In this document: piece after piece, positions 6,515 through 34,611 of the stretch
How the letters are laid out: every line of letters begins with the position of its first letter
Numbering within the stretch: the first letter of the stretch is position 1
DNA from: Eledone cirrhosa
Taxonomy: Eukaryota
Reading direction: 5' to 3'
Assembly (NCBI GenBank): GCA_964016885.1
Contig: OZ024741.1
Span: 338,334,001-338,398,000, forward strand
DNA: 64,000 bases
Program-made: the position numbers and the translations under genes
The notes under the pieces: model-generated
What the model was told of the DNA's origin: nothing
The model's database searches: none
What the model saw: the letters and a program-made list of their open reading frames with translations, nothing else

Positions 6515-7245
6515 ATAAGTATGTACACGTACATACATATATGTATACAGACGTACAGTAGTATGTATATATATATACATACATGCGCACATATATATAT
6601 GTACGTATGGATTCACCGAACATTTATTATAATGCTCGGTGTGTTTGTAAACAAACATCCCGTATTAAGCCGTAGTGTCCAGCAACCATCGTTGCTCGTT
6701 TGTTCAACACTGACAAAGGAACGCTGTACTAGTTTCGAGCTTATTAGCTATCGTCAGCAACGTATACCTTCCTACCAGATTGTTGAACGTATATACTTAC
6801 CTTATGCATATTAAAGGCTGAGTGGCCCAATTTGCATATCGAGTGGGTTAATCGACCGGGTGCACCGAAAACGATAAACGGAAAAAATGAAACGAAATTT
6901 CATTTCCCACTCTTAGTACGGCTGTTACTTAAATATAAGTATGTACACGTACATACATATATGTATACAGACGTACAGTAGTATGTATATATACATACAC
7001 GCACACATATATATATGTACGTATGGCTTAATACGGGATGTTTGTTTACAAACACACCGAGCATTATAATAAATGTTCGGTGAATCCATACGTACATATA
7101 TATATGTGTGTGCATGTATGTATATATATATATACATACTACTGTACGTCTGTATACATATATGTATGTACGTGTACATACTTATATTTAAGTAACAGCC
7201 GTACTAAGAGTGGGAAATGAAATTTCGTGTCATTTTTTCCGTTTA
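6515..7245. mobile_element. Same pLTR family, ~420-bp period with inversion at ~7026 (copy B ~49846-50577)
   Basis: Similar to 35106-36387; hammerhead at 6721-6763. Confidence 0.72.
6721..6763 (-). ncRNA. Minimal type I hammerhead ribozyme
   Basis: ACGTTG CTGACGA T AGCT-AATA-AGCT C GAA ACTAGT A CAGCGT; palindromic stem III, GUA site. Confidence 0.8.
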
Positions 7246-9209
7246 TATATATATGTATATTATACATATTTCGATTTTTGTAGTGGTCTTTTTCCTTCTC
7301 TAGAGGATTTTACCCGACTTTTATAAGCTATTTTACAGCAACTGTCTGTATTCACAGTTATTTTCTGCATCTAAGCTGCCTACGTCTTATAAATACATGT
7401 GTGTATGCGTGTATCCTTCAATAGAAACAACGTAAGTATCCTCTCTCTCACTTACTCCTTCCCACCCAACAACAGCTGAAAGTATAAATCACCATGGGAG
7501 CAAGGATGGTGGTTTAACGACTTCAGATAACTAGATATAAACGTGGCAGCCATCAGCAAGACCAGAATTTCTTAGTTAGACCCATTCACAGCCATCTTCA
7601 ATGGTTAGAATATGTATTACATTTTGTTGTCAGCCTACATCAGGGAGTGAAGTAGCTGTATTATTTCTGACATGAGCATCAACAACGGTGGTGCCTTCAG
7701 ACAGGAACAAGGTTTTCAGACATCTTTGGGTGTCTAGAAACATTCTGAGGAATGTCCTGCTCTTTAATACTAGAGACTGAAATGACATCTTAGACGCGTC
7801 GAGATTGTGTGGGGAGGATGAGGGAATAATTGATGGGAGGATGGTGCAATAGTGTCATAAAACTGTTCACACCTTTCCAAATATCTGGCAGGAACTGACT
7901 GGGTCTCCTGAAGATGTCATCTAGATTGTATCTAAATAGTCAGTAGACAAGATTAGAGTAGAGTATCCACATTTTCAACTGGTTGACTACACAGACCACA
8001 AATCTTTTAACTGCATGGTTGACCTAGATATAACACAGAAGCAAAAACTCTGCTACTGGGAGCTGAACACATCTGTCCCTGCAGGTAAAGCCTACAGAAA
8101 CTGGATTAGTGACTTAGTTAAGTGGCAACTGACAGGGGCTATCTACAACAACTGATAGTTGATTAATTTAAAGAGCAATTAGCATAGAATCAATAAGGTT
8201 TATTAAAGAAATAGCTTCTGGATTTGCGACCAGTATTTAGCATCAGTAATGGAAAGGCCAATGGAAACATTGTTTACTTGGTCAGATTAGACAAGTTCCA
8301 CTTCACTCGTTAAACAAATGAGGTCTGTGTGTGTGTGTAAACAGTAAACAGAAATAGCAAATTAGTAGGGAAATCAAATTAGATGTAGGGGAGGCTAGAG
8401 AACAATTTAGAGGGAGAAATTCAGAAAGTCATTGCAACTAACATGTTAGTAATAAGAATATCAAAACACAAAGGCTGTGTTCTCTGAGCTAATGCACTTG
8501 CTCTAAGACAGGATGGAATGAAAGCATTCAATAGAACTGAGTCACATAGGATAATATGGCAAGAAAACTATAATAGGTCTTTGACCGATTGGTGTAAACA
8601 CATGCTACTCGATGTCAAGTAGATGTATGTGCCTATTTAGCCACATTTTGCTCTACTGTTCAAGGTGAATGGTGGATGTGGACTGAAGATAGTTGTGAAC
8701 TTTAGTGGCTTGAAGTGGATTTTATCAGAAAATGCAAAGTGCTGCAAAAAAGCAAATAACAGCAGCTGAAATACAGATGGTGATAAGTAGTTATATGAGA
8801 GGCAGATCATCTGGTTTAGATAGTCTGCCCTATGAGTTTTACATATATATTTGCCAGTCTTATTCACTAACGACTTGGCTAATGTCTTAGATGTGTGTGC
8901 TTGAGGTTGGTAGCACTGCTGAGAAAAGGGATGAACAAAGGGGACAATAGTCATCATTTCCAGTTCATAAATGCAGCATTTAAGATTTTGGCCAGGTGTA
9001 CGGCTCAAAATCTTCAATACGTTCAATGTTAGCATCATCATTATTGACTAGTTCAAAAATAAAAAGAGACAAATTTTGCTGAAAATTGCTTTATTGATGT
9101 CTTAAGTTTCTATATATATATACATATATAATTGTGCGTGTGTGTGTATGTGTGTGTGTGTGTATTCATATATATATATATATATATATACATATATATA
9201 TTACAATTA

Positions 9210-9305: not shown

Positions 9306-9335
9306 TTAGAAATTGCTGCATTTGGAAAAGCGCAC
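9306..9335 (-). CDS. Copy A exon 8 (coding part VRFSKCSNF*)
   Basis: polypyrimidine tract + ttcag acceptor, phase 0, TAA at 9308-9306, AATAAA downstream. Confidence 0.78.
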   Translation of the reverse strand: MRFSKCSNF

Positions 9336-9838
9336 CTGAAAAACAACAACCATATCATTAGAAAAAACATTATTTTCAGTTGAGAATCCAAAACTTATTA
9401 CCAACATTAACTTGGTAATAAATATTTGTAGTTATTATATTTTGCATTGCTTCCTTGTAACAAGCATGTCTTATGTAACTGTGTGTGACAGAGTGTGTTT
9501 GTGTGTATGTGTACATTCGTGTGGGCACATGTGTGTGTGTGCACATGCATGTGTGTGTGTATGTGTGTGCATGTGTGTGTGTGCCCATGTGTGTGTGTAC
9601 GCATGTGTGTGCCCATGTGTGCGTGTATTCTCTACCCCTATGCATAGGGGTAGAGAATGTGCTTATGTCTGTGTGTAAGTATGTGTGTGTGTGTGCATAC
9701 AAGTCAAAGCATAGCGTCCGAAACGTTAAGACCCTCTTCCTGCTATTTCAAGCGTTAACCTAATATATTCCTTCCATATACTGTACCGATTGTGTTGTTA
9801 TTTGTGTTTACCTTTTACATAGATATATATATACATAC

Positions 9839-9872
<34 letters not shown>

Positions 9873-10158
9873 GTTAGGAAGGCAAGGCTGTGTGGTCACT
9901 GAGAACGAGTGATAGAAGGAAAGGTGACACAAACAAGAGATGAAAAGTTTCCCTTCGGCAGCTGTTTACCACGGGTCATGCATGTTTTGGTGTATTATAA
10001 ACAGAACATTGATCCATAGCGCACCCATGGCCTTTTATCTATAAAAAGGCCATGAGGGAAAGAAGTGATAGCGAAGAGAGAGAAAGAAAGAAAAAAGGGA
10101 AGAAGAAAAAAAGGAAAAAAACGAAGTAAACATACCAACATATATATGTATATATATA

Positions 10159-10213
<55 letters not shown>

Positions 10214-10426
10214 GAAAGTACAGCATATTCGAAGCTCGAGCCGCAGCTAAGCCGATGAATGCCTTCAGCAGTGCAGCCAAGCACTCGACAAGGTATAAAC
10301 CTCAGAGTAATAACATACAGTTTAAAGGGCTTTGCAAATTGAAGATAGCGACCGGTAATCCAGCCGCGTGGTATGTAGCAACGAAAGAACTGACTCGTGA
10401 GAAAAAATACATACACATATACATAT

Positions 10427-10457
<31 letters not shown>

Positions 10458-13400
10458 GTATATATATAGACATATATATATATATGCGTGTGTCTGTGTG
10501 CATGTGTGTTGTGTATATATATATACATATGTATTTTATGAGTAAATACCATATACCGTGTAGTGCAGCTTGTTTTGTTTTTTTCATCATTAAATGTTTG
10601 GTTAATGGTGTATAGAAGTTCAGTAATATAGTGAGAAAAATCATTTGTACTTTTAAGTGTCAAATATTACTTACATTTTTCATGTTTCCAACAAACTTAT
10701 TCATGGATCTATCTTCTGCAATAACCATTCCACATTTTGAAAGGGGAATAGAACCTGAAAATATATTTTGATAAATAACTATGTGTGATATGTATTCAAT
10801 TATATATGGCACATATGGAATTTCATCGATATAAATTTGAGTATTTGCTAGACAGTTATTATGATTTACATTGCTGTATATTGTAAATAACTTACCTAGA
10901 ATGCCATGTTATAAATTCTGATAAATTATATAATGTGTGTATTTAATGTGTATTCACCTCTTGGGGGAGATTCCACCAACAGTGTATGTGCACCATTACT
11001 AAACATCCATTGGAGTGACTGTCACCAAGACAGAGGTCCTTAAGGAGACCAAGATCGCCAGTAACAGACCACTTTTATGAAGACACAGTGGCGCTAGGTG
11101 ATGCATGTCTCCAGAAGGGCAAACCATCATCTTCCAAAACTCGTGTTCTACGGAGAATTGTCTTCTGGTTGTCGAAACAGCACTGCACCAAAGAAGTGGT
11201 ACAAATATGTGCTAAAAGAGACCCTGAGAATATGTAACATTGACCACCACCTGTGGACCTCTACCCAGGGAGGCTACCAGCACATTTGAGGCAAATCGTC
11301 ATGTCAGCCTGGGCATGAGGAGAGACTGGCAGGAGGGTGATGTCAAGGTGAAGCCAAGCACAACACAGTCATTTGATGGAGTCATAGGAGTATTGTCATG
11401 ACAAATGACATCGCATTGTCAGGTGATGCCCGTGAAGGTGTTTAATTGTTTCAGGACCCTAGCCTTGTCATCACCCATGGTAACACTGCCATGGTAACAC
11501 TTGCCTCGAAAAGTTCTGATGATTATTGAGGTGTGTGGCCAATTGATACACTTAGTCATGAATCGATATATATGTTTTGTTTCTTTTTTTTCTCACTTTG
11601 ATTATATATTTCTCTGTATTATATTTATTTAATCTTATATATTTGTTATGCATGTATGATCCCATAACTCTTGAGGGAGTCGTAGGGGCGCCGTATTGAC
11701 ATACAGCATTTCTAGAGCTTTTTTTTTTTTAATGGTGGAGCCCATCTTCTCTCCAAGTCTGAATACAGCAGATTTCTTCCAGAGAAGGATAGAGAGTGAG
11801 AGAATATGGAAGTGAGAAAGAGATATAGAGTTAAAATCAACCCCAGTACTAGACTGGTCCTTTTTTTATCGATCTCGAATGGAGGAAATGCAAAATTGAC
11901 CTCAGCAAGATTTGAAATGAGAGCCGGAACAAATACCGCAAAGCATTCTATCCAATGTTCTAAATGATTCTGTCAATTTGCCACCTTATATATTTGTTAT
12001 ACGGTAGTTAAAAAATTATGGAAAATTACCTGTTACAAACTCCTTTGAAATTTCAATGTTGTTAACGAGAAACGAAACTGAATTTGGGTCTTTCTTCATT
12101 GTGACGGTGTTCCAGTTCCCCAAAATCTGTGCAAGAAATAAAGTAAAATCTTAATAGTTAAAATTTCCTACATACGATCGTACTCTACGGAGAATTGTCT
12201 TCTAGCTATCGAAACAGTGGTGCACCCAAGAAAAGGTATCAAGATATGCTTTAAAAAAGACCCTGAATGTATGTAATATCAACCACCCCCAGTGAACCCT
12301 CGGCTGCTGACCACAATGCTTGGTGCCACACCATAATATAAAATTTTAAAAGTATGAAAAATACAATAAATAAATAAATAAATAAATAAATGTATATATA
12401 TAAATATATAAACAAATAAATAAGTTGGACTAGCGATATCTAGAAAAATTATTTTATTGTATTCAATAATAGTAAGTGTCAGCCTTTTGAGCCAGTAATG
12501 TAACTTCATACCATATAGACAAACAATCATTTATTTAATGAAAGTTCTCATATAAAACCATATAGATAGCATATAAGTACCATACAGATACCAAATAAAT
12601 AGTTACTGTACATTTCTATAAGCATAGAATTGTAGATAATAAAATGACATCGTTTTGGTATACAAACACCACTTTTGAATAAACATTTATAATACGGAAT
12701 AGACAAGGGCCCCATAAATGACGGTGAATGCAATACGTCTAGGAGAGCATTTACTTTGAAAGAAATAAGACTGCACGGGGTGGACATAGACTCTATAAGC
12801 CATAATGAAAACAACCTCTCTACGAGAGGTCACTCTTGATAAAAACTAATACAGGATAGAAAGGACCCTTAACTCCAGTCAAAAACCTCTCTAGTAGTGC
12901 TGATGGCACAATAAAATGCATCCACTATATGCTATAAAGTGATGAGTGATAGAAAGGGCATCCATCAAGAAAAGAAACTGCCAAAAATTATCATCATCAT
13001 CATCATCATGAAAAGTAGATGAAATGATGATGGGTCATGTTAATATTTTCATATATATGTAGATGCTCATATATTTACAAAATAATAATGTAAGATACTA
13101 ATATTTTTTATGGAAAGGAAATGAAACGGCTTCTGAAAATGAAAACTGGATTGAGAACTTTGCTCAGTCTAAATGTTAACTTCTAGTTTACAGTTCAAAT
13201 ATCAGTTGCTCTCTGGTAGGTTTGTGGTATTGCCTGCAGTAGTGGAGACTTCCGGCATTCTTGCACCCAGGACCACATCCCTGCTCACTGCTATCAGAGC
13301 AGAGTTGGTTGCCCACAGGTGTGAGCCCATGAGGTGGAGAGGCTGTTCCAGTATATCTCTCTTGCTGTCCTCCGGGGGGAGGGGAAGCAATGTATTCTCC

Positions 13401-16400
13401 ATCCTCTTAGTGAGCCAGGACCAAGAGGCAGAGAGTAAGTCAGTTAGAGATGAAGGATACTCGTTTGGACGTCACACATATACACACATACACAAAATAG
13501 ATAAAAAGAAACAATATTTGTAATGTTACAAAACTTTGTAAACTTACAAAGCCCATAAGCTACTGAAGTTTACAGTGTTCACAATATCAACAAAGAAATA
13601 TATTGATTAACTTACCACATTCGTTGACGATTCAATGTTTTTTATTCCAGTAATTGTTCTTACTTTTAGTAAAAAATTGACCGTGTTGCCATTAAGGCTG
13701 AAACTGAATGTTGCATCTTCTGTACAATTATTGTTGCTCATTAAAGCTGTTATTCTTGTATTTCCAAATGGCATTTGGAAATCCACAGACAGACCAAACC
13801 ATTCACCAAGTTCATTATTAGAAAAAAAAGGAACTCCTACAGTGGTGGTGCCATTGAAAATGGCAAAATCGTTATTGAAAGAAATAGCTTCGGCATTGAG
13901 GTAAACCGTTTCAGGGACTGTTTTTAAGTTTCCATTCAGAGGAGCTGTGAAGCTGAAACAGGTTGTAGCTGTAATGCAGGAAAAAGAATGTAAACAGATT
14001 TGCTGAATGTCTCATGAAATAAAAACGAAAAACAAAATGCAGGGTGAGTCATAAGTAACCAGGAAATCAATGCATTTTTTTTATTGCAAGGTTCACAGAT
14101 AACTTTTTGAACATCCACATATTTGTGTGGGATCAGCCATGATTGTATTGTTTTTACTTTTGTTTGATGTATTTATAATTTTGTAATTTACGACCAGAAT
14201 ATTAGTAAATATTATCATTTGAAATATAAATGTTGTACTGCCAGATTAGTTATAACTCACCCTGTATAATCAAGTGAAAATAATTAGAAAAAAATAATAA
14301 CATTGTCGTAAATGATTTCATAGAAACAAAGCAAAAATGTATTTGTTGAAATGTGGACTGCTTGCTTGGTGATAAGAATATGGAGAGGGAGGACATGAGG
14401 CCAACTGCTGTCGGTAGGAGTGGGTGAGCAGAAGTGAGTTGAATTAATGCCACTGACTTCTGCCACATCCACTTGGGGTTTACCTGAGTCATTTCATTGC
14501 TACATTATAGCATTCATACACACACATAGAAGTTGAGGTTATTTGGTTTATTTCATACCACAGCACAACTAACATTAAAATTCAACCTGCTACAGGATTG
14601 AATTTAGTCTAGTAAACCCATGAAAGGGCTATCTCAGCATGGTTACAAACTAAAGATTGAAACTAGTAAAAATAAAATAACAATAATTACGTTTGATATT
14701 CATATTAGAATCAATACATGTGCATAAAGTCATATTAAATTCCAGTCCTGCACCGCAGCTTCTTTCAACCCAATCCGATCCGACTTTCTGGAGATATTTT
14801 CCTTTCTCACCGGAAAGCTTATACAGAGATGAACATGCTGAAGTGAGATAAAAATAGAAAAGATGAAATTTATTTGATATTAAATTGCATCAGTGAATTT
14901 GTTAAAATTTATGAAATTACTAAAATTATCCAACAAAATATAGGTTACCAAAGTTTCACAGATTTTTTTTTTTTTACAAAATACTTTTGATAGAAAGATG
15001 GAGGTACTGGATATCATGTACAGGGTATGATTTCCGAAGGAAAAATCTACAATACTGGGTACACACCAAAAGTAAAGTGCCTACATTATATGCATCTGTA
15101 AACTCTAACTTTGCATGGTATAAGCAATAAACAGGATAAGCAATAAATTGATGGAGTCAATAGAATGTCAGATAGAATGTTTTGTAGTATTCATTTTCAC
15201 TTTCTGCTCTTGAAATCCCACCAAGGTCAACTTTGCCTTTCATCCATTCAACGTTGATAAAAAAAAGTACCAATCAAGTACTGGGGTCGATTCTTCCTCT
15301 ATATCTCTTTCTCACTTCCTTTCTGTCACTCTCTCTATCCGTCTCTAGAAGAAATCTGCTGTGAGAGAAATCTGCCAGGAGAGGAGATGAGCTCCACCAG
15401 GTTTTAAAATGCCCTAGAAATGCCATATGTCAATCAGGAGTTACAGGATGAAATAAAACAATAACAGGATATTCAGTTATGCTCAATTTTCAGCATAACA
15501 GTAACTCAAAATTAGTGATGCATTGGATCACAATATTTTATAGAGTAAGGCCTCTTCACAGTGTCATTTCACTTTACATATTGTGTTTTGTAGAGATATT
15601 CTTTATATACAGGCGACAAATTCAGAGTTATTAGAACATCGGATAGAATGCTTTGTGGTATTCATTTCAGCTCTCTGTTCTCTGAGTTCAAATCCCACCT
15701 TTAATCCATTTCTATTTCTCACTTCCTCTCTCCTTCTCTCTTTCTCTCTCTCTCTCTCCCACTTTATATCCTTCTCTGGGAGAAATCAGCTGTATTGAGA
15801 CCTGGAGAGGAGATGGGCTCTACCAGGTTTGAAAAAATGCCCTAAAAATGCTGTATGCCAATACAGCACCCCTACAACTCACTCAGGAGTTATAGGACCA
15901 TGCATGCAGGCATTCTTTATAAACCACATTCAGCAGTGGCACTTGATTAATCATCACAGAAACTGATCCCTTTTGTTTTTCGGTTTTTTTCACAAAGCTC
16001 AATTTTAAACAAAGGCTAATGATAGTATATAGTAAACAAAATATAGTTAGTATAATTTTTTAAATATTGATACAGAGTGAGTCAAAAGTAGTGTCCAATT
16101 CCTGTTTTAGGGTTATCAGTTGAAAGACATGTTTTCAAATGTATTACTTCTAATTATTCCATTTATTCAGGGAATAAGAGACTGTAACAGGCTATTTTAC
16201 TTTCAATGTTCAAAGTGTCCTCCCTCATAATCAATGCACAATTGTAACAAGCAAGCACAGAGTGACACACACGACTTCAGAATTCGCTATCAAACAGAGA
16301 AAAGTATAAACAACATCAAGGTTCAAATACCGCCACATCAACAACAACAACATGAGCATGACATCCCAGAAACTGGGCGCTACTTTTGACTCACCCACTT

Positions 16401-18098
16401 CTTCTTTGCCCACTTATTCCTGAGAGGGTCATGGGGGCAGTGTCCTCAAACACTCCTTCCAGCGGGTTCTCTCAGAAGCAACTGTCTCCAGATGATCCGG
16501 CTGGATCTCCAAGTGAGACTAGCTGGGCTCATGGGTGTTATCCAACCATCTTGCTTGAAGTCTACCCCTGAGTCTCCTGCCGGTTGGTTTTTGCCCGTAA
16601 AATCTGTCCAACGATTCTTTCCTGAGACATTCTAACTACATACCCATTGTATTGGAACTGTGATCTTTCAATTCAGAGAAGTAGCAACTCTACCTGGAGT
16701 GACTCTCTGATCTCCGAGCTACGCACTCTATCAAGTAATGTTACTCCAAAGACTCTTCGGAGGAACCCCATTTTGGTCGCTTGTATTTGCGATCATATTC
16801 TTTCAGTCATTACTCAAGATTCATGACCATAGTTAAGGGTTGGCACGAATACCAAATTGAACATAGCGAGTTTGGCTTTTATGCCTTCCTTCTTCTGATT
16901 ACTGAATTCTGAAGCAGGCACATTGCTGCACCAGCTCCTGCAATTCCAGCATTTAATTCAGCCTCCTGCCTTCCATCACTCAGGAACATGACCCCAAGGC
17001 ACTTGAACTTCTCTGCTTGCTTCAGTGAAACTCCATTCATATGTAGTGCACTGCACAGGCTTCCTTGAGGGGACGAGTGTCTCAGTTTTCACAGCACCAA
17101 TTTTCATTCCAGCCATGTAGCACTCGGCATCAAACATATCAGGTGCAAGTCGGAGATCACCATCTGTTGAATTAAGAAACACCATGTTGTCTGCAAATTC
17201 CAGCAGACTGATTTTGCACCCACCAGTCATGATACCACTTCCAACCCGGCTGTGCATGTCAATCCTGTTCATGTAAATGATGAACAGGAGAAGTGACAGT
17301 ACGTACCCTTGGAGGAGTCTGACTCCCACATTGAATGCTTTCAATTTAGCACCATTTATCTGAACACAAATACTTGGGCATTTGTATAGAGACATCAGGG
17401 CAGCAAGAAGCTGACCATCAAACCCATACTTATGCAGAACCTTCCACAGCAGGTCCCGAGGAACATGGTCATATGCCTTTTCAAGGTCGACAAAATAAGA
17501 ATAATTCTAATTTTCAAAAAGGGAAACAAGAGAGATTGTTCCAATAACAGAGGGATCTCCTTGTTAAGCCTCCCCAGTAAAGTCCATGCTAAGTGTCTAG
17601 CAAAGAGATTCAGGGAGATTGTTGAGTCCAAGCTAGCTGATGAACAGTGTAGTTTTCACCCCAGACACAGCACAGTCGAGCAAATATTCACACTACGGCA
17701 GGTCTTCGAGAAATCATGGGAGTATTGCCAAGAGGCATATTCTTGTTTTGTCGACCTTGAAAAAGCATATGACCCAGTATGTTATGACCTTTAATTTTTA
17801 AAGATTATTAAGATAATCAAAATAACAGAATAAAAATATTAAAAATATAACGCACAAGGAAGTTGAACCACAGAAGGGTTGCATGTAAGGTCCGACACAC
17901 ATTGTTGGTTGCTTTCAGAAAAGCGTTTTTCATTACCACAATTTTGAGATGTCACTGGTATATCTTGGACACATGAGAAGTATTTACTGCAACTGTTCAC
18001 ATCTTCCACCTTGGCACGGCCCTCACAACCTAGGATAATATAAAAATTTAAAAAAGTATTTAATATAATACAATAGATTATACACACACACACATATG

Positions 18099-18171
<73 letters not shown>

Positions 18172-20734
18172 TACACTAGAAAATATCACCTATGATACAC
18201 AGATAGTTGGTGTTACACTAAGAAATATCACCTATGATACACTGATACTTGGTGTTACACTATGAAATATCACCTATGATACACTGATACTTGGTGTTAC
18301 ACTAGAAAATATTACCTACACGAGGAAATATCACCTAAAAAAAATTCAAATACCACCAAACTAATACCAAAGTGTTCAAACCAGTAACTATTTTAATGTG
18401 CAGTTGACTCCTGCTTGTCATCACGTCATCATCTCGTCATCATTTAACATCCATTTTTCCATGCTAGCATGGGTTAGATGAGCTGTTCCATTGTGAGATA
18501 AGCCTGGTCGGATAACAATGTCTTGCTCATACAGAACTAATTTGGGGTTGGTTTCTACGACAGAATGCCTTTCCTAACACCAATCACATTTATAGTATGC
18601 ACTGAGTGTGTTTTTTGTTGTGACACCTACACGACCACTTTACAGTGTGTACTACATGCTTTTTATTGTTATACCTACATGACCTATAGTTTTTTATCTA
18701 ATTTAAGTTCACATGGTAAATGATGGTTAAAAGGCTTAAAATACTCATGAAATGCTAAAAGTATCCCCCATTACATTACAAATACTTCTCAGATTCAGAG
18801 AATATAAAATGCTGAGTCATGGCACCTGTCTCAAAGATTTATGCAGTTCTTAGAATTTCCTTAAAATAAATCCTTGTTGAAATATGGCAGTAGTGTACAA
18901 CAATTAAAACAAACTGTTAGTTTATTGTGGATTACTGTATGTGTTGTATGTTCACTAAGAAAGAAAGGAAGAGAGAAAGTGTGTGTGTGTAAGAGAGAGG
19001 GAAATAAATAGAGAAAAAAGAAAGAGAGGGTGAATGGGAGAGAGAGAGAGAGAGAAAGAGACATAAAGAAAGAGAGGAGGAACGTAAGAGAGAGAGAGAG
19101 AAAGAGACATAAAAAAGAGAGGGTGAATGGGAGAGAGAGAGAGAGAGAGAAAGAGACATAAAGAAAGAGAGGAGGAACGTAAGAGAGAGAGAGAGAAAGA
19201 GACATAAAGAAAGAGAGGAGGAACGTAAGAGAGAGAGAGAGAAAGAGACATAAAAAAGAGAGGGTGAATGGGAGAGAGAGAGAGAGAGAAAGAGACATAA
19301 AGAAAGAGAGGAGGAACGTAAGAGAGAGAGAGAGAAAGAGACATAAAGAAAGAGAGGAGGAACGTAAGAGAGAGAGAGAGAAAGAGACATAAAGAAAGAG
19401 AGGAGGAACGTAAGAGAGAGAGAGAGAAAGAGACATAAAAAAGAGAGGGTGAATGGGAGAGAGAGAAATAGTGAAATAATGATATATTTACTTGAAACAC
19501 AGGCGACGTTGATTTTATAATCACAGGTTAAACTTTCAGGATTGAAATAAAGGCCATCATTACAATTCATCTCACGACGAAAAAATCCGTTGGGTGTTGG
19601 TTCACACACAATGTACTTTTCACAACGGTAAGGATGCTTGCAAAAATAGGTATTTTGACAGCTGCAAAACTCTAAAATGATAAAAAGTAAATAATTTTCA
19701 TAAACAGATAGATAAATATTGTCTATAATATTAGAAGAACCCCATGCATTGCCCACATTTCAAAATAGCAATCTACATTCTAGGTTCAAATCCAGCCGAG
19801 GTTAAGCTTTGACTTTTATCCTTACAGATTCGTAAAAATAAATACCACTAATGCATTGGATTCGATTTTATTCAGTTTCTCCTCCTCCAAAAATTGTTAG
19901 CTTTGTACCTAAGTCAGAAAGAGCATATAGTTAGTAAGAAATTCTGAGGCATTTTTAATCTGATGCCCTAACACAACTCTATCAATTTGCCACACTAAAG
20001 CAAATGTTTATAAGTATCATTAGCTTCAGTTATTACTCTGTAATTACTATCTGTTATTACAGTTATTACTATCTGTTCTAAAATTCTGAATTGTTGACTT
20101 AGAAGCAGGTCGACATATTTTGTTTAGGTGTAAGGTTGCTTGAATTGGTTTTTGAATATATTAAAGGTATTTATTTTATTCATCTTCCAGAGAACTAAAT
20201 AGCAAAGTTCTGTTACAATCACTGTTTGAGATTGAGGAATGACTGTACAATAGAAATGCTAACCAAACATGTGATGGTTGATCTTCTACTAGACTTGTGG
20301 GTTCATGCTCTCAGTAAAGACTGCAATAGTATTCAACATATTTCATTTTCAGAGTCCAGGATCAGTATGCCATATAAACCAGAATTTCTGGGTATATGAA
20401 CAATCATCAAATTTGAAAAATAGCAATTTGATAAATTAATGGTTTGCATAAGAGAACCCCTGTAGTTTATGTTGATTACTGACACATGGAAGTGATTAAA
20501 GATAAAAATGTTCATTTAAATAATTTTTTTTTAAAGATATAATTGCATAAATGTTCAGCATGTATATACAAATGACATACACAATTAAATGTATTAGTAA
20601 CTTTGGAGAAATAACTATTTACAGGGATAAGAAGCCAGGATCCTATGATTGAAAAGCAAACTTCTTATAGCAAAATGATTGAGATAGGAAATGCATTGTG
20701 TGCATGTGTGTAAATTTTAAAGAGTTACAGACAA

Positions 20735-20814
<80 letters not shown>

Positions 20815-20906
20815 ACACATATATATATATACATATATATATATATACACATATATATATATACATATATATATATATACACATATATATATATACATAT
20901 ATATAT

Positions 20907-20944
<38 letters not shown>

Positions 20945-23900
20945 ATAGAGCAGGAGAAATCGTAGAAATGCTAGAGCGAAAGGAAGTTGATGTATGCTGT
21001 GTGCAAGAGACTAGATGGAGAGGAGGGTCTGCTAGAGTCCTCGTAGGAAAAAGCCAGTGCTACAAATTTTTCTGGGTGGGAAATGACGATGGGATGGGTG
21101 GTGTAGGTATACTATTAGCTGACAAGTGGGTAGATAAAGTAATCTCAGTGTACAGGGTAAATGCAAGAATCATTAAACTCAGACTAGTCCTGAATAAGAC
21201 AATTACCACAATAATATCAGCTTACGCACCCCAATCGGGGCTGCCAGACGAACTTAAGGATAGGTTTTACGAGTCCCTAATACACACTACTGCTCTAACA
21301 GACGACAAGGACTTCCTAATCATTGCAGGAGATTTTAACGGACACGTAGGTAAACACTGCGACGGCTTCAATAGAGTACATGGAGGCCATGGAGTTGGCA
21401 CAAGGAATGAGGAAGGATTCAGACTTCTAGAATTCTGCGACGCCAATGACATGTCGATATGTAACACAAACTTTAAAAAACCCGACAACCACCTGATCAC
21501 CTATAGATCAGGGGAGCACTCTAGTCAGTTAGATTTTATCCTCATCAGAGGACGTGACAGATGGACGGTCGTAAACACAAAAGCCTTCCCTAGTGAGGAA
21601 TGTACATCCCAACATAGCTTAGTTGTCAGCGACCTCACGGTCAGAACTAGACGAGCCCTGAAACAGAGGCCAACCTGGAGAAGAAAGATCTGGAAGCTGA
21701 AAGTCCCCTCAACCAGTAACAGATTTAAAGATATTTTACTCAACGCCTACGACAGTAAAGAAGAACAGATAGAGACATTTAACGTAGAAGAGAACTGGGA
21801 GTTCCTAAAAAATAACTTACTAGAGGCGACGGATGAGGTTTGTGGCTGGAGTAAGACCTCAAGCAGGAGGAGAGTGACTTGGTGGTGGAACAATAAGGTA
21901 GATGAAGCAGTCAAGGCCAAGAGACAGTCATGGAAAGAATGGAAGAACGGAGGGAGCAGGGTACATTACATAGAGACCAAGAGGGAAGCTAGGCGACAAG
22001 TATACTTAGCTAGGAGGGAAGCAGAGGATAGAAAATTCAAGCATGTTTTACAACGTGAGGACCAGAAACAGGAGGTATTCAAGATTGCGAGGCAGTGTGT
22101 CAGAGATAGTTGTGATGTCATTGGAGAGAAGTGTATCCGGAATGATAAAGGTGAGCTTGCCCTCACAAGTGCTGAGAAGAAAGATGCATGGAAGAGTCAT
22201 TATGATAGATTACTAAATGAGGAGAATGCATGGGAAGAGGAGACCCTACCCCACGTAGACCCTATAGAGGGACCAGCAGTACAAGTCAGCGGCAGCGTAG
22301 TAAGTAAGGCAATCAGAGATATGAAGATAGGGAAGGCAACCGGTCCATCGGGTATAGCTGCCGAGATGCTGAAGGCATCTGGGTCTGTAGATCACACTAT
22401 AACCACACGTATCGTTAACCAGGTAATACTAGAGGGGGCCATACCAAAAGATTGGTGCAGTAGCATCATTGTCAACTGCTACAAAGGTAAAGGCGATGCA
22501 CTAGATAGAGGAAACTATAGAGGTATAAAGTTGATGGACCAGGTCATGAAAGTAACAGAAAGAGTTATAGCACAGCTGATTAGGGACCGGGTGAATATAG
22601 ACGAGATGCAATTTGGGTTTGTACCAGGGAAAGGCACCACTGATGCCCTCTTCCTTGTGAGGCAATTACAGGAAAAGTACCTAGCTAAATGTAAGCCACT
22701 CTACTTGGCATTTGTCGACCTTGAGAAAGCCTTTGACAGAGTTCCACGTGCAGTAATCTGGTGGGCTCTTAGAAAACTAGGAGTAGATGAATGGCTTGTG
22801 AAAGCGGTACAAGCCATGTATAGGGGAGCAGTCAGCAAAGTTAGGATTGGCAATGAGTATAGCGAGGAATTTAGCGTACAGGTTGGGGTCCACCAGGGCT
22901 CTGTTCTTAGCCCTCTCCTGTTCATCATAGTCCTGCAGGCAATAACGGAGGAGTTTAAGACCGGATGCCCATGGGAACTCCTGTATGCTGATGACCTCGC
23001 ACTCATAGCTGAATCTATGGTAGAACTAGAGAATAAATTCCAAACCTGGAAGCAGGGACTAGAGAGAAAGGGCCTCAAAGTCAACATGACAAAGACTAAG
23101 GTCCTTATAAGTAGACGAGAAAACAGAACCCAGATCCCCTCAGGGAAATGGCCTTGCTCAGTATGTAGGAAAGGTGTAGGTAGGAACTCCATTCTCTGCC
23201 CCAAATGCAAACAATGGGTACACAAGAGATGTAGCGGGATCTCAGGAAGCTTAATTAAGAATGTAGGATTCACATGCAGCAGCTGTGCTGAAACAGCAAG
23301 CAAACAGCCACAGGAAACAAGTACCACCAATCTCTGGGATGGCCCTGTAGAAACAGTAGACAGCTTCTGCTACCTAGGTGACCGAATTAGCAACGGAGGT
23401 GGGTGCTCAGAAAGTACAATAACTAGGGTAAGAACGGGATGGAAGAAGTTTAGGGAACTACTACCACTGCTAGCTGCAAAAGGCTTCTCCCTCAGAATGA
23501 AAGGCAGACTGTATGATGCATGTATCCGAACAGCGATGTTGCATGGTAGTGAGACCTGGGCGTTGAAGGTGGAAGACTTACGTAGATTAGAGAGAAACGA
23601 AGCCTGCATGCTCCGATGGATGTGTAACAGTACTATACGTGAACGACAAAGCATAAAGGAATTGAGAGAGAGACTGAGCATAAGAGGAATCAAATGCTGC
23701 GTGCAGGAGAGGCGGTTACGCTGGTATGGACATGTGATGCGTATGAAGGATGACAGCTGCATAAAAAGGTGCAGAGCACTAGAAGTTGATGGAAACCGTG
23801 GAGTGGGGAGACCCAAGATGACTTGGGATGAGGTGATAAAAGCCGACCTTACCCAACTACACCTCTCAAAGTCAATGACACACGACCGTGACTTCTGGCG

Positions 23901-24248
23901 TCACGCAGTAATACAGGGTACCCGACCTCCCATGGGTACATGCTGAAGCATATAAACAATATGCCCCCCCCCCCCCACCGCAAGGTGGCCGTGGAGGTGC
24001 CACGGCAAAAAAGCACCCAGCCCACACTGTAAAGTGGACGTGTAGGCGCCACGAAAAAGCACCCAGCACTCACTGTAAATGAGGTTGGTGTTAGGAAGGG
24101 CATCCAGCTGTAGAAATCAAGCCAGATCAGTTCCTGTATGAGCAAGGCATGGTCAGCCGACCAGACACTGCCCACAACAGGACAACCCGTCTAACCCATG
24201 CTAGCGTGGAAGAACGGACGTAAAACGGTGATGATGATGATGATGATG

Positions 24249-24287
<39 letters not shown>

Positions 24288-24291
24288 TATG

Positions 24292-24369
<78 letters not shown>

Positions 24370-26799
24370 GACAAGTGTACTTCGCAAGAAGGGAAGCAGA
24401 GGAAACAAAGTTCAAGCATGTTCTACAACGTGAGGACCAAAAACGTGAGGTGTTCAGGATTGCCAGGCAATGTGTCAAGGAAAACCGTGATATTGTCGGG
24501 GAGAAGTGTGTGCTTAACGATGATGGCATACTTGCCATCACCGACGTTGATAAGAAGGTAGCTTGGAAGTGTCACTACGAAAGGCTTCTAAATGAGGAGA
24601 ACAAATGGGAGAAAGACAGTCTCCCCCACATCGACCCAATAGAGGGACCAGCAGTGTTAGTCCAGGGTAGTACAATAAGCAAGGAAATCAAAGATATGAA
24701 GACGGGTAAGGCGGCTGGTCCTTCGGAAATAGTTGCTGAGATGCTGAAGGCATCCGGTTCGGTGGGACACACCATGGTCACCCGGATAGTTAACCAAGTC
24801 GTACAGAATGGGGTTGTTCCGAAGGACTGGCGTAGCAGCATCATCGTTAACTGCTATAAGGGAAAAGGAGATGCCCTAGATAGGAGTAACTATAGAGGCA
24901 TTAAATTAATCGACCAGGTCATGAAGGTCACGGAAAAAGTAATAGCGCAACTAATCAGAGAGAGAATTGATCTAGATGAAATGCAGTTCGGGTTTGTGTC
25001 AGGCAAAAGTACCACAGACGCTCTTTTCATTGTACGACAACTACAGGAGAAGTACCTAGCTAAAAGTAAACCCCTATACTTAGCTTTCGTCGACTTGGAG
25101 AAAGCCTTCGACAGAGTCCCCCGTTCCATTATCTGGTGGTCTCTTAGAAAACTAGGTGTTGACGAATGGCTTGTGAGAGCTATAGAAGCCATGTATAAAG
25201 AAACAGTCAGTAAGGTTAGAATTAACAACGAATATAGTGAAGAGTTTAGCGTAAAAGTTGGTGTCCATCAGGGCTCTGTTCTTAGCCCCCTACTATTTAT
25301 TATTGCCCTTCAGGCTATAACAGAGGAGTTCAAGACCGGCTGCCCATGGGAACTCCTATACGCAGATGATCTAACGCTCATAGCTGAATCAATGACCGAA
25401 CTAGAGAAGAAATTCCAAACATGGAAGCACGGCCTAGAATCAAAAGGCCTTAAAATTAACCTGGCTAAGACAAAAGTTCTAGTTTGTAGGAAAGAAAATA
25501 TGGCGGCAGTCCCATCTGGGAAATGGCCATGCTCAGTGTGTAGGAAAGGCGTAGGTAGAAACTCCATTTTATGTCCCAAATGCAAAGTATGGGTGCATAA
25601 AAGATGTAGTGGGATCACAGGTAAGCTAACTAAGAACATAGATTTTACATGTGGCCGGTGCTCTGGTGCAATAAGTAGCAGCAAGTGCCCACAAAATACT
25701 AGCTCCTTCAACTGCGCAGAGGGTTCTATAGAAATAGTGGACAGCTTCCGTTACCTGGGTGACAAAATCAGCAGTGGGGGAGGGTGCTCTGAAAGTACAG
25801 TAGCTAGAGTCAGAACTGGATGGAAAAAGTTCAGAGAGCTTATACCACTATTAGCCGCTAGAGGGTTCTCCCTAAAAATGAAAGGCAGGTTATACGATGC
25901 CTGCATACGAACAGCAATGCTGCATGGCAGTGAGAACTGGGCATTGTGTGCAGAGGATATACGCAGACTAGAGAGGAACGAAGCTTGCATGCTCCGCTGG
26001 ATGTGCAATAGTAATATACGTAAACGGCAAAGCATAAACGAACTAAGGAAAAAATTAAAAATAAGAGGGATCAGATGTTGTTTACTCGAGAGAAGGCTAC
26101 GTTGGTACGGTCACGTGATGCGCATGAAAGACGACAGCTGTATAACAAAGTGCAGGGCAATAAAGATAGACGGTAGCCCCGGAGTAGGCAGACCCAGAAA
26201 AACATGGGACGAGCTGATAAATTCTGACCTCACACGCTTACACCTCTCCAAGACAATGTCACTGGACCGAGACCTTTGGCGGTACTCAGTAATAGAGAAG
26301 ACCCGCCTTACCTAAATACAAAGTAAAAACCTACTACAGTCAGTAGGCATCTCTATCAAAACACCCCCCCGTCCCACCACCTCCACCCCATCCACACCGC
26401 CCCTTTCAATGTACAGTTATGTTGGTCCCACAACATCCAGGCTGAAACAAATGAGATCGTGTAGGTGTCACGACAAAAAAACACACAGTCCACGCTGTAA
26501 TGTGGCCGTGTAGGCAACACGGTAAAAACCTCCCAGCCCCACACTGTAAATGTGGTTGGTGTTAGGAAGGGCATCCAGCTGTAGAAAACCCGCCAGACAG
26601 TCCACGCTGTAATGTGGCCGTGTAGGCAACACGGTAAAAACCTCCCAGCCCCACACTGTAAATGTGGTTGGTGTTAGGAAGGGCATCCAACTGTAGAAAA
26701 CCCGCCAGACAGTCCTATGCGAGCAAGACAACCACTCTTGCCTCAAGTGGGAAAACCCCCGTCCAAACCCATGCAAGCGTGGAACACGGACGCTAAACC

Positions 26800-26891
<92 letters not shown>

Positions 26892-26898
26892 TATATAC

Positions 26899-26981
<83 letters not shown>

Positions 26982-28132
26982 TGTACCACATGGCTTAGTG
27001 GTTAGAATGGAGGCACATGGCTTAGTGGTTAGAGCATTGGCCTTGCAATCGAATGGTTGTGAGTTCAATTCTCAGACCGGGTGATGTGTTGTTTCCTTGA
27101 GCAAGACACTTATTTCACATTGCTCCAGTTTACTCAGCTGTAGAAATGAGATGATAGGGACTGGCATCCACATCATTCCACTGCAAAGTGGTCGTGGAGG
27201 CGCCACGGCAAAAAAGCACCCAGCACTCACTGTAAATGAGGTTGGTGTTAGGAAGGGCATCCAGCTGTAGAAATCAAGCCAGAATCAGTTCCCGTCCCAC
27301 CCTTGCAAGCAGGGAAAAGCGGACGTAAAATGATGATGATGATGATGATGATATATATATATATATTATATATATATATAAAACGAAGGAAATATATATA
27401 TATATATATATAACGAACGAAATATATATATACAAACACACATGATGTATTATTATGATTGATAGCCCATTTAGCATTGGAGCCCTATCGTATGGAGATA
27501 TCTAGTTTAAAGATTGGAAGTTATCCATATATTTTCATGTACAAAAATGGAAGAAATAGAACAGGAGATGAAATAAAGGAGAGAAAAAAAGAGAATGATG
27601 AATGTTGAGAAAGAAGAAATTATCTTCCTGAACAATCAAATCAAAATTATCTTCCTGAACATTTCAGAGATCAGAGAGTCGTTCCAGGTAGAGCTGCTAT
27701 TTCTCCAAATTGAGATCATAGTTCCAGTACTATGGGCAATTTGGTTAGAATGTCTCAGGAAAGAATTGCTGGACAGATTTTACGGGCAAAACCAACCAGC
27801 AGGAAACCCAGGAGTAGAAGAAACCTGAATAAGATGGTTGGATAACATCCATGGGCTTTGCTGGTCTTGCTTGGTGGGATCTAATCAGATTAATTGTAGA
27901 TGGTTGCATCTAATAGGACCTGTTGGAATGAGTGTTTAAGGACTCTCTCAGGAATAAGTTGGCAAAGAAGAAGAAAAAGAAAAATATTTATTAAGGAATT
28001 TAGAACAAACATTATTGTAATCATAAATGAGAAAATACTGAGATACTTACGGTCCAAGTTTTGACCAAATATCATCCCAATAGACAGCAAAAGACAGACC
28101 GCAAAAAGTTGTTGAGGGCCTTGCATTTTCAT
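9306..28132 (-). CDS. Pif/BMSP/LamG3-like secreted chitin-binding + laminin-G protein, copy A (complete, 380 aa); complement(join(9306..9335,10675..10754,12030..12126,13616..13968,14691..14837,17856..18029,19492..19671,28051..28132))
   Basis: Manual splicing: all 7 introns GT-AG with matching phases (1,1,1,1,0,1,0); 1143 nt open to TAA. Signal peptide [23 protein letters not shown], Cys-rich CBM14-like modules, then LamG-like motifs [50 protein letters not shown] that resemble the C-terminal domain of molluscan Pif-family proteins (recognised from memory, no search run). Confidence 0.88.
10675..10754 (-). CDS. Copy A exon 7, LamG-like
   Basis: ttcag acceptor, gtaagt donor; [27 protein letters not shown]. 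Confidence 0.87.
10965..11290 (+). mobile_element. RTE/BovB-like 3' fragment (second piece ~12173-12300)
   Basis: [24 protein letters not shown]...KDxLK-type motif. Confidence 0.7.
12030..12126 (-). CDS. Copy A exon 6, LamG-like
   Basis: cacag acceptor, gtaatt donor; [32 protein letters not shown]. Confidence 0.87.
13190..13440 (+). mobile_element. Possible RLE-type (CRE/NeSL-like) non-LTR C-terminal fragment
   Basis: [24 protein letters not shown] resembles the KY..L...F.P.AVET.G motif. Confidence 0.4.
13616..13968 (-). CDS. Copy A exon 5, LamG-like domain N-terminal part
   Basis: tacag acceptor, gtaagt donor; 353 nt open: [14 protein letters not shown]...[21 protein letters not shown]...[10 protein letters not shown]. 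Confidence 0.9.
14040..14264. mobile_element. Tc1/mariner-type MITE (copy B ~57375-57599)
   Basis: Imperfect TIRs CAGGGTGAGTCATAAGTAA / TTAGTTATAACTCACCCTG followed by TA. Confidence 0.6.
14691..14837 (-). CDS. Copy A exon 4, degenerate chitin-binding-like module
   Basis: ttcag acceptor, gtaatt donor; [49 protein letters not shown]. Confidence 0.88.
16071..16397. mobile_element. Tc1/mariner-type MITE with right TIR cut by the LINE insertion
   Basis: TACAGAGTGAGTCAAAAGTAG / CTACTTTTGACTCACCC. Confidence 0.6.
16398..17776 (-). mobile_element. RTE/BovB-like LINE with 5' inversion (copy B ~59733-61111)
   Basis: Minus part: [18 protein letters not shown], (GAA)n tail at 16398. Plus part 17495-17776: [18 protein letters not shown]...FVDLEKAYD. 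Same-family 3' end at ~27660-27975 (+). Confidence 0.85.
17856..18029 (-). CDS. Copy A exon 3, second CBM14-like domain
   Basis: cctag acceptor, gtgcgt donor; [19 protein letters not shown]...[21 protein letters not shown]. Confidence 0.88.
18171..18340 (+). repeat. 42-bp minisatellite, ~3.5 copies (copy B ~61474-61640)
   Basis: TTACACTAGAAAATATCACCTATGATACACTGATACTTGGTG. Confidence 0.85.
19010..19468 (+). repeat. GA-rich compound VNTR next to the exon 2 donor (shorter in copy B, ~62310-62585)
   Basis: Mixed units ...GACATAAAGAAAGAGAGGAGGAACGTAA(GA)n and ...GAGGGTGAATGG(GA)n. Confidence 0.85.
19492..19671 (-). CDS. Copy A exon 2, CBM14/peritrophin-A chitin-binding domain
   Basis: tttag acceptor, gtaaat donor; [22 protein letters not shown]...[24 protein letters not shown]. 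Confidence 0.92.
20945..24250 (+). mobile_element. RTE-clade LINE, near full length, ORF open to 23946 (APE endonuclease + RT + PHD-like Zn finger), (GAT)n tail
   Basis: [57 protein letters not shown]; 5' end cut in (TA)n; the ORF-track N-terminus is microsatellite read-through. Confidence 0.95.
24369..26830 (+). mobile_element. RTE-clade LINE, 5'-truncated, RT ORF open to 26315, (GAT)n tail
   Basis: Related subfamily of the upstream element; LLYADD; 112-bp tandem duplication in the 3' UTR (26485-26714). Confidence 0.95.
27015..27350 (+). mobile_element. tRNA-derived SINE with RTE-derived 3' tail
   Basis: A-box TGGCTTAGTGG, B-box GAGTTCAATTC, core CCTTGAGCAAGACACTT, tail matching the RTE 3' UTR near 23980-24130, (GAT)n end. 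Confidence 0.8.
28051..28132 (-). CDS. Copy A exon 1 (signal peptide [27 protein letters not shown])
   Basis: ATG at 28132, hydrophobic core, donor C|GTAAGT; phase 1 matches exon 2. Confidence 0.8.
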
Positions 28133-28208
28133 TGTGTTACAGAGTATTGCTATGTATGTACCTATATCTTCATGCAAAAGAGGATTGAAAGTCTGTCAAA
28201 ATCTTGTA

Positions 28209-28216
28209 TTTATATA
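28209..28216 (-). promoter_or_regulatory. Putative TATA box of the Pif-like gene
   Basis: CTATATAAATA on the minus strand ~77 nt upstream of the ATG; position plausible, but the background is AT-rich. Confidence 0.5.
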
Positions 28217-28276
28217 GAACAGAGCCTGTGAAAGTTACTATGCATGTGTATTTACACGTGTTTAGATTAGAAATAT

Positions 28277-28485
28277 TCATCATCGTCATCATCATCGCCA
28301 TTGCCTTCGTCATCGTCATCATCATCGCCATTGCCTTCGTCATCGTCATCATCATCGCCATTGCCTTCGTCATCGTCATCATCATCGCCATTGCCTTCGT
28401 CATCGTCATCATCATCATCGTCGTCGTCGTCATCGTCGTCATCGTCATCATCATCATCATCATCATCATCATCAATAATAATAAT
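28277..28485 (+). repeat. 30-bp repeat plus (CAT/CGT)n microsatellite just upstream of the Pif-like promoter
   Basis: CATCGTCATCATCATCGCCATTGCCTTCGT x4. Confidence 0.85.
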
Positions 28486-29394
28486 ATTATGTGAGAAAGA
28501 AGGTGGAGCTAGTGCAAGTTTTGTCCGTCTCCCAGATCCTCCTACACCCTGACACATGTTTATTTGCAACGTATTAGAGCTAATATCTACATAAGCAACT
28601 AGGCATTTTTATTAAAGAATTAATAAAAGGCTTTAATAAAACCACAAAGGTAATTGTTTGAAAAAATATTCTTATTTTTTTAAAAAAAGCTTTACATGTT
28701 TTTTATGTTCAATTTCTTTATTTCTATTGCTTTAATTTCAAGATTATTTTATATATAAGAAATGAGAGAATTTTAATTTGAATAGAGAAATAAATAGCTT
28801 GATTGTGTTTTCAAGGACAGAAGACTAGTTATGAAAGTTGCATAAGCTAGAATATAAAAAGAAGAGACTAAATTATTCTCCCTTATCCACACCTTTGTGA
28901 ATAAATTACTATCTCTTCACAACAGAGTCTTTAATCACAAACCGGTTTAAACTCATTTTTATCCATTCACTCTTTTATACATTTCTGTTTCAATGAATTC
29001 ATTCTGACAAAGACAACAAAAGTCTTTAAAAATATGAAGAAGGTGGTTCCTGTTTAACATGATAGCTTTTAGATAGATCATTACAAAAATACAAACTCTT
29101 CAGCGACGCTTAAGTCGTTTTTTGCTTTATTGCTTGTAAAATATATATATGTGTGTCATCTCCCTCTCCTTCATCTACAAAAAAATGAGAGTAGGATGTA
29201 TAATTGTGTGACCTGGAGTCTGTTTAAAAGGAAAGATATTTGCTATACAATGTCAGGTTACTTAGTAAAAAAATGAATTTATTCGTAAATATTTCTTATA
29301 GGTTTACAAAACTGTGAATTAAACTTCTCAAGGGAGACTACTAGTCTTTATTTTTATATTTTCCTTATAAGGATTTATTAAGTTTTCATAATTA

Positions 29395-29585
29395 ATACGG
29401 TGGATTGGCAGTATCGGTAGAGAGTCGGGCGCCATGCTTTGAAGCATGTAGTTACCTCCCTTTATGATCTGAGTTCAAATCCCGCCAAGGTTAACTTTGC
29501 CTTTCATCCTTACGGAGTCGATAAAATAAAGTACCAGTAATGCACTGATATAATTGCTGGCCTTGTGCCAAAAGTAGAAACAATA
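29395..29585 (+). mobile_element. tRNA-derived SINE with Nin-type core (degenerate copies at ~11835-11985 minus, ~15145-15290, ~19780-19925)
   Basis: GAGTTCAAATCC B-box followed by ACTTTGCCTTTCATCCTT..GTCGATAAAATAAAGTACCAG. Confidence 0.65.
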
Positions 29586-29899
29586 ATTAATAATATAAAT
29601 AATGAAAGAAGGGGGAAGGGGTAAAGAAGGGCAGATCTGGCTGTATAGGAGAGTAAAGGAAAGGACTAAAAATGCCATAAATGAGAAGAAAAGGAAGGAA
29701 AGAAGCTAGGACTATTAGGCCATGGAAGAAATAGAGGGGGAAGGGGAAAGGATGACAGGCCCTGCACCTAAGTTGGGGCAGTAAGGTCTAACCTCAAGGT
29801 TTCTGATGAAAGGGTTAAAGAAAAGTCAAATTTCTACCAGGAAGGATGACTGATCATCTTTAACATTTGACTCTATGTATGATTTCCTTAAGAATTATA

Positions 29900-33560: not shown

Positions 33561-33589
33561 GAATACCTAGTTAGTAAACGATGATGACA

Positions 33590-34524: not shown

Positions 34525-34611
<87 letters not shown>

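Follow-up and report, generated by a model that had tools for sequence, protein, structure and literature searches.

A 64,000-nt window of Eledone cirrhosa DNA (contig OZ024741.1 of assembly GCA_964016885.1, 338,334,001-338,398,000; all positions below refer to this whole stretch) carries on its minus strand, between 28132 and 9306, an octopod gene of LamG3 architecture that is spliced, evolves fast and has probably been duplicated in recent times, and whose product is, on a slight balance of probability, a secreted non-mineralising linker in an epithelial chitin-containing matrix. Eight exons join into a coding sequence of 1143 nt, corresponding to 380 aa plus stop, free of internal stops. 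All seven introns have GT-AG borders, with phases 1, 1, 1, 1, 0, 1 and 0, and exons 2, 3 and 4 hold one cysteine module apiece, each between phase-1 introns. Thus, the eight-exon gene model proposed in an earlier interpretation of the letters (the sequence-only reading) is borne out. The exon 1 assignment is based on homology to the N-termini of Octopus relatives, and two AATAAA signals, starting at 9215 and 9095, are located downstream of exon 8. The window as a whole is N-free, has a GC content of 37% and contains many microsatellites. In the following list, joints and loose ends refer to contigs of the public run X4.

28207..28216, minus strand: TATA-like box found by sequence scan some 75 bases ahead of the start codon, putative in function
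28051..28132, minus strand: exon 1, with the start codon and the sequence for the predicted signal peptide (aa 1-27); hydropathy peak at aa 9-21, aligning with the N-termini of Octopus relatives
19492..19671, minus strand: exon 2, CBM14 module 1 (aa 28-87) with Y79; Pfam E=1.6e-8, CBM14 matches in the PDB, 8-nt loose end in X4
17856..18029, minus strand: exon 3, CBM14 module 2 (aa 88-145); Pfam E=4e-6, loose ends in X4
14691..14837, minus strand: exon 4, module 3 (aa 146-194), CBM14-like but degenerate, with four cysteines; Pfam E=0.02, below cut-off, joint in X4
13616..13968, minus strand: exon 5, first two thirds of the predicted LamG-type domain (aa 195-312), by homology; joints in X4
12030..12126, minus strand: exon 6, LamG-type domain continuing (aa 313-344), by homology; joints in X4
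10675..10754, minus strand: exon 7, LamG-type domain continuing (aa 345-371), by homology; joint in X4
9306..9335, minus strand: exon 8, last nine codons and stop; 14-nt loose end in X4

A search of public runs with the stretch 13600-14850 listed seven runs, four of which contain it, and none of these is recorded as RNA. Four runs were compared over 10560-18070, with intron 1 lying outside this stretch: X1 and X2 from sample S1, X4 from sample S2 and X5, a restriction site-associated DNA sequencing run whose coverage consists nearly completely of repeats and is uninformative. In contigs of X4, joints bridge stretches of 722, 1489 and 1275 bases that have CT..AC ends and are exactly introns 4, 5 and 6, while loose ends match the neighbouring exon across intron 2 (8 nt, being the last letters of exon 2), intron 3 (12 and 20 nt, on both sides) and intron 7 (14 nt). 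Accordingly, three of the seven junctions are supported as joints and three as loose ends, the remaining one, intron 1, being beyond the compared stretch, and the gene model of the sequence-only reading has read support from X4. The joints of introns 4, 5 and 6 were not found in X1, X2 and X5 over 10560-18070. Word depth in X4 amounts to 10,871-61,575 in exon bins (summed across overlapping contigs) and to about 24,000-25,000 at two of the joints, compared to 3.3-11.3 in repeat-free intron bins. Because of this exon/intron contrast and the spliced joints, X4 behaves as an RNA library. Its depth also suggests a very abundant transcript, albeit the depth of contigs reflects expression only poorly and is unfit for ranking genes.

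Pfam was run on seven of the eight exons singly, exon 8 being too short. CBM_14 was called on exon 2 (35 bits at a cut-off of 22.1) and exon 3 (27.3 bits), whereas exon 4 stayed below cut-off (15.5 bits), so that two of the three tandem modules exceed it; no family was assigned to exons 1, 5, 6 and 7. Sequence matches of exon 2 in the PDB are CBM14 structures, among them squid beak chitin-binding protein 3 (E=0.006), while exon 3 did not give any match there. In module 1, the aromatic Y79 stands two places after the penultimate cysteine and aligns with aromatic residues of the solved CBM14 structures, and modules 2 and 3 lack an aromatic at this position. The same Cys+2 spacing applies to Trp465 of human chitotriosidase CBM14, the residue whose substitution reduces binding most (PMC5459812; this and the other papers cited here are used as excerpts). 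A signal peptide is predicted from hydropathy, residues 9-21 forming the only strongly hydrophobic stretch of the protein, and from the alignment with the N-termini of relatives.

The C-terminus is indirectly assigned to the LamG type, both by alignment to proteins with a called Laminin_G_3 domain and by the modelled fold of an Octopus relative. Residues 95-374 align with two Lamellibrachia tubeworm proteins (P0010 and P0011) at identities of 26% (E=1.6e-15) and 23% (E=7e-13), with the best of 50 shuffles reaching 24.3 bits, and both proteins carry CBM_14 and Laminin_G_3 above the Pfam cut-off. Hence, of the Laminin_G_3 search proposed along with the sequence-only reading, a direct call on exons 5, 6 or 7 did not materialise, while the alignment to Pfam-called Laminin_G_3 proteins supports the assignment. 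A PDB sequence search with the LamG profile did not give any match, and Atlas features for exon 5 are weak (best 0.90 for an unnamed feature, 0.85 for a Laminin_G_3 cluster). For the O. bimaculoides relative, however, nine of ten Atlas structure rows list Laminin_G_3, either in the aligned part or in the cluster, with a best template modelling score of 0.73 by row, and the matches of its Atlas model to LamG clusters span residues 215-399. An AlphaFold model of the C-terminal domain of the O. bimaculoides protein (P0007), taken as a stand-in, has agrin and neurexin LamG/LNS domains in the top two VIA rows (Z of 7.6 and 7.5), at a low-confidence predicted local distance difference test score (pLDDT) of 50.6; the full-length P0007 fold (pLDDT 36.5) was not used. 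Altogether, the domain order put forward from the letters, i.e., signal peptide, two CBM14-like domains, a degenerate module and a LamG-like end, is supported.

The absence of a VWA domain and of an acidic Pif80-like tail, likewise claimed before, also holds. No VWA was matched by Pfam on the seven exons, and the relatives with which the protein can be aligned from one end to the other have no VWA either. A crude scan for the metal ion-dependent adhesion site motif in intron 1 and 28133-43113 gave one match, at 32954 in a transposon-like region. Aspartate and glutamate make up 8.7% of the protein, with five such residues in the last 60, the stop follows directly after LamG, and no acidic low-complexity tail was found in the composition of the whole protein. 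The possibility that a GAT-based tract at 28276-28474 represents a lost acidic tail was discarded, as the tract is repeat-like, lies just upstream of the TATA-like box and has no visible splice acceptor before it. It is built from a 30-base higher-order unit, with one minus-strand frame giving about 68 mostly Asp residues and another poly-Met, and is probably a microsatellite.

A HMMER search with exon 5 against 1.84 billion representatives resulted in six matches, the two best clusters being Octopus proteins; two other matches, a repeat protein (P0004) and a sushi protein (P0005), were dropped as unrelated and left out of alignments and tree. The closest relatives, in line with the probable octopod source put forward in the sequence-only reading, are XP_052828695.1 (O. 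bimaculoides LOC106873033), XP_029645353.2 (O. sinensis LOC115219333) and CAI9733052.1 (O. vulgaris), which the spliced protein matches in blastp at E=3e-74, 2e-60 and 8e-62, respectively, with identities of 35-38%. The comparison by BLASTP that had been proposed from the letters therefore leads to Octopus proteins with chitin-binding and LamG domains. These are colinear with the window protein throughout, from the signal peptide across three cysteine modules to the LamG domain (aa 7-377 in the best alignment), but lack in module 1 the Cys+2 aromatic which the window protein has. Divergence is also high within Octopus, as the members from O. bimaculoides and O. vulgaris share only 55% identity. 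Fragment ends of P0001, P0008 and P0003 coincide with the exon 2/3 and 5/6 borders of the window gene, which suggests that introns are shared with the Octopus relatives. The O. vulgaris protein (P0002) is labelled "3-ketoacyl-CoA thiolase, mitochondrial" despite its CBM14 and LamG content, and the model of the O. sinensis protein (P0009) no longer follows the family beyond about residue 336, which looks like mis-splicing.

A word-based search of longer proteins with exon 5 retained none of 122 candidates, a search with P0007 gave only the two Octopus clusters (2 of 1,658 candidates), and a LamG profile search (2 of 7,998) added P0010 and P0011, the two non-cephalopod full-length relatives found. 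As none of these protein searches (exon 5, P0007 and LamG profile) revealed a relative above about 40% identity, the gene may be called "hidden", as had been claimed, in that sense only. In a tree of eight octopod-type and tubeworm-type rows, with P0001 and P0008 left out as parts of P0007, the cephalopod-type rows, to which the window protein belongs, separate from the tubeworm-type ones (support 100/100), the window protein branching outside the remaining four (90/92, not starred); since named Pif, BMSP or LamG3 proteins are not among the rows, the tree is silent on orthology. A full-text literature search for LOC106873033, LOC115219333, XP_052828695 and XP_029645353 did not find any mention, no identifier linking these Octopus proteins to Ocbimv22010162m was found in the supplements of PMC10543319 and PMC9635652, and the excerpt of PMC8700984 did not provide a link to them either.

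LamG3 proteins are defined by chitin-binding and LG domains without VWA and occur across lophotrochozoans (PMC10543319, PMC13076209), whereas Pif and BMSP combine chitin-binding and LG domains with a required VWA, of which BMSP has one to four (PMC11291548). As judged from its predicted domains, the window gene is of the LamG3 type and neither Pif nor BMSP: it shares chitin-binding and LG domains with both, but lacks the VWA of either and the acidic Pif80 region of Pif (Pif97/Pif80). Consequently, the "Pif/LamG3-like" label of the sequence-only reading stands for its second half only, and its emphasis on the missing VWA as a peculiarity was overstated, this being a published defining feature of LamG3 (PMC10543319, PMC13076209). 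The class, exemplified by Argonauta Aargo013232, O. bimaculoides Ocbimv22010162m and the Nautilus and oyster members, has a signal peptide, about three chitin-binding domains, LamG and no VWA, as predicted here, albeit the LamG of the window protein has diverged so far that Pfam does not call it directly. The architecture is that of the Argonauta hians eggcase LamG3, with signal peptide, three ChtBD2 and Laminin_G3 (bioRxiv 2021.07.10.451900). Outside molluscs, the cassette of CBM14, degenerate module and LamG is shared with P0010 and P0011 (23-26% identity over 312-367 aligned columns) and with Paraescarpia LamG proteins; the tubeworm proteins carry extra TSP1, VWD, TIL or EGF domains. Tubeworms possess 65-140 tandemly expanded proteins combining LamG and ChtBD2, some of them found in the chitin tube proteome (PMC8476170), compared to the two copies seen here.

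That the gene is amplified, as previously claimed, is supported by a second copy. Window positions 1 to about 20900 recur at 43114-64000 in the same orientation and without N gaps, as part of a direct tandem duplicate of 43.1-43.3 kb. The original gene is referred to as copy A and the duplicate as copy B.

62788-62609, 61364-61191, 58172-58026, 57303-56951, 55461-55365, 54090-54011 and 52667-52638, minus strand: copy B exons 2-8, duplicate of the gene

The frame of copy B is open and its splice sites are intact, while its own exon 1 would fall beyond the window. Near the visible start of the duplicate, at 42294-43298, there is a 470-base inverted repeat (94% identity), possibly a transposon end. 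Over 17,445 repeat-masked columns, the copies differ by 53 substitutions (0.30%), of which 45 are noncoding (0.27%) and eight coding. All of the latter are amino-acid-changing (K152Q, R171K, D188E, M191V, K194R, K210E, R266G and R373H). At the noncoding rate, 2.9 coding differences would be expected where eight are observed (Poisson P=0.010), and five of the eight fall in exon 4, i.e., module 3, where 0.4 would be expected (P=6e-5, before correction for seven exons). That all eight are nonsynonymous is, taken alone, compatible with neutrality (P=0.09-0.16).

Whether copy B is a duplicate at all is a question separate from that of function. The gene might be single-copy, the assembler having placed the second haplotype behind the first, with the coding differences being alleles. 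This is the less likely but a substantial alternative, as the noncoding divergence of 0.27% is within the range of heterozygosity, a level that is plausible, and as the copies share their orientation and no breakpoint is visible within the window. There is, however, no N gap between the copies, and the contig path found in both samples, S1 and S2, is neither copy A nor copy B, which is indirect evidence. X1, X2 and X4 alike are B-type at 12144, 12577, 12761, 13756, 13924, 14693, 14703 and 14710 and A-type at 12449 and 13427. Moreover, S1 contigs end beside A/B differences at 14762 (X2) as well as at 14820 and 15894 (X1 and X2). In X4, A-type transcripts at 14703 reach a depth of 2,520 of 27,529 (about 9%), and a loose end at 14819 shows CGG at codon 152 in place of the AAG of copy A and the CAG of copy B, representing either a third allele or an adenosine-to-inosine edit. 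The shared path differing from both copies and the contig breaks at A/B differences suggest that a single sample contains at least three types of sequence, although the contigs are bubble-popped, so that this argument is indirect and contig word depth is not a copy number. A third sequence type favours true amplification over an assembler artefact, and the duplicate is therefore considered probably real.

With respect to function, the reading of a matrix linker is built on the following steps. The N-terminal peptide would send the protein out of the cell, where module 1 may dock on chitin or chitosan fibrils via Y79, this module being the predicted binder because it is the sole one with an aromatic residue at the key position of human chitotriosidase CBM14. 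Modules 2 and 3 might be weak binders or spacers, and the LamG beta-sandwich could bind matrix proteins or glycans, by which fibrils would become cross-linked. As an acidic region is missing, the protein would organise an organic scaffold rather than nucleate calcium carbonate. Tandem copies might raise the dosage of an abundant matrix protein while diverging in module 3. Beak, radula, sucker cuticle, gut lining and egg case, named in the sequence-only reading, would be candidate sites for the protein. A matrix role is backed by the very high level of a LamG3/Pif-like transcript in arm and mantle epithelium of A. argo (bioRxiv 2021.07.10.451900) and by the use of related proteins in the chitin tube of tubeworms.

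Several points weigh against this reading. Pfam gives no LamG on exon 5 of the window gene, none on the O. bimaculoides relative and only E=0.0023, below cut-off, on the O. sinensis relative. The folded domain is a stand-in with a pLDDT of 50.6, and Z values below 8 may reflect a common arrangement. Two of the three modules lack the Cys+2 aromatic residue, and chitin binding is a prediction. No named molluscan Pif, BMSP or LamG3 is among the sequences retrieved, the class thus being assigned by architecture. Library kind and tissue of X4 are not on record, its RNA nature being read from depth and joints. Finally, an identity of about 37% to the Octopus relatives and copy differences which are all nonsynonymous suit a recognition protein at least equally.

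Such a recognition protein would be a secreted surface-defence or gut/saliva lectin for foreign chitin or glycans, e.g., of fungi, parasites or crustacean prey, with copies diversifying under ligand selection, a function that is rather unlikely but deserves consideration. It is consistent with the fast divergence (35-38% identity to the Octopus relatives and 55% between O. bimaculoides and O. vulgaris) and with the eight of eight amino-acid-changing coding differences, in excess overall and in exon 4. However, the uniformly nonsynonymous pattern does not differ significantly from neutrality, so that relaxed constraint would account for it too, and secreted matrix proteins also evolve fast. CBM14 modules are known from immune proteins (PMC5459812), and the fold matches include CBM40 domains, which bind sialic acid (rows 3, 6, 10 and 13) and are tied with LamG rows, but an immune role for LamG3 was not found in the excerpts of the literature surveyed.

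Still less probable is that redeployment has not occurred, in which case a shell-field protein would build the stylet, a vestige of the internal shell, or, should the source be an argonaut, the matrix of an egg case. Many incirrate octopods do keep chitinous stylets. Decapodiforms whose gladii are reduced still have LAMG3, which has been proposed to keep a basic role in the shell (PMC13076209), and LamG3 occurs in the matrices of the Nautilus shell and the A. hians eggcase (PMC9635652). On the other hand, the very high depth in X4 would require a library from the small shell sac, A. argo has a high level of the LamG3/Pif-like transcript in its arm epithelium, outside any shell field (bioRxiv 2021.07.10.451900), and an acidic region is absent. 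The idea that the reading frame is a chance join or dead pseudogene, to which the lack of a close database relative in the protein searches and of any synonymous difference between the copies might point, is refuted, as far as the join is concerned, by the spliced joints in X4 and further contradicted by the colinear homology over aa 7-377 and by the intact frame and splice sites of both copies, leaving it a very slight probability.

The coding differences show a further pattern. All six coding transitions between the copies are A/G on the sense strand, compared to 9 of 27 noncoding ones (Fisher P=0.0045, post hoc). Codon structure accounts for part of this excess, as 406 of the 694 possible nonsynonymous transitions in the coding sequence are A/G. 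At the five A/G coding sites covered by X1, the contig majority letter is G. According to one hypothesis, editing permits G-to-A changes in coleoids (PMC6881472). The A/G excess and its possible relation to editing are regarded as a lead rather than a result. Another study reportedly argues for adaptive editing. At its boldest, and with little likelihood, octopods would have turned a shell-toolkit LamG3 paralogue into a very abundant, tandemly amplifying and positively selected family for chitin or glycan recognition, with module 3 as variable surface and copies that may gain editing-maskable G-to-A changes.

Apart from the gene, the window contains several repetitive elements. Two plus-strand frames of long interspersed nuclear elements (LINEs) lie in intron 1, one at 20950-23940, stop-free over 997 codons with endonuclease, reverse transcriptase (E=7e-32) and, following the latter, a PHD-finger match above cut-off (E=3.8e-6), and a 5'-truncated one at 24372-26309, stop-free over 646 codons with reverse transcriptase and the same PHD match. 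An octopus RTE LINE has been described with a C2H2 finger, with PHD not being mentioned in the excerpt (PMC9115989). Copies related to the second LINE, at about 76% identity, are present at 2850-4290 and 45990-47430. Besides, inverted repeats are nested at 34957-36587 in a foldback-like arrangement about 1.6 kb long, with extended AT runs on its flanks and related pieces at 6490-7270 and 49820-50600.

Neither the architecture nor the idea of redeployment in a shell-less lineage, put forward in the sequence-only reading, is without precedent. O. bimaculoides has lamG3, and functions unrelated to the shell have been suggested (PMC9635652), while the retention of LamG3 by shell-less octopods, for reasons stated to be unknown to the authors, has been pointed out as well (bioRxiv 2021.07.10.451900). 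What is new here is a divergent, strongly expressed LamG3-type member together with a young second copy bearing amino-acid changes in excess in module 3; a young tandem duplicate with exclusively amino-acid-changing differences is not mentioned in the excerpted LamG3 literature. Comparing the two copies amounts to a natural experiment, if a small one, on how selection or drift buffered by editing acts on a young duplicate, and such a divergent, strongly expressed and duplicated member offers a handle on why shell-less octopods keep LamG3.

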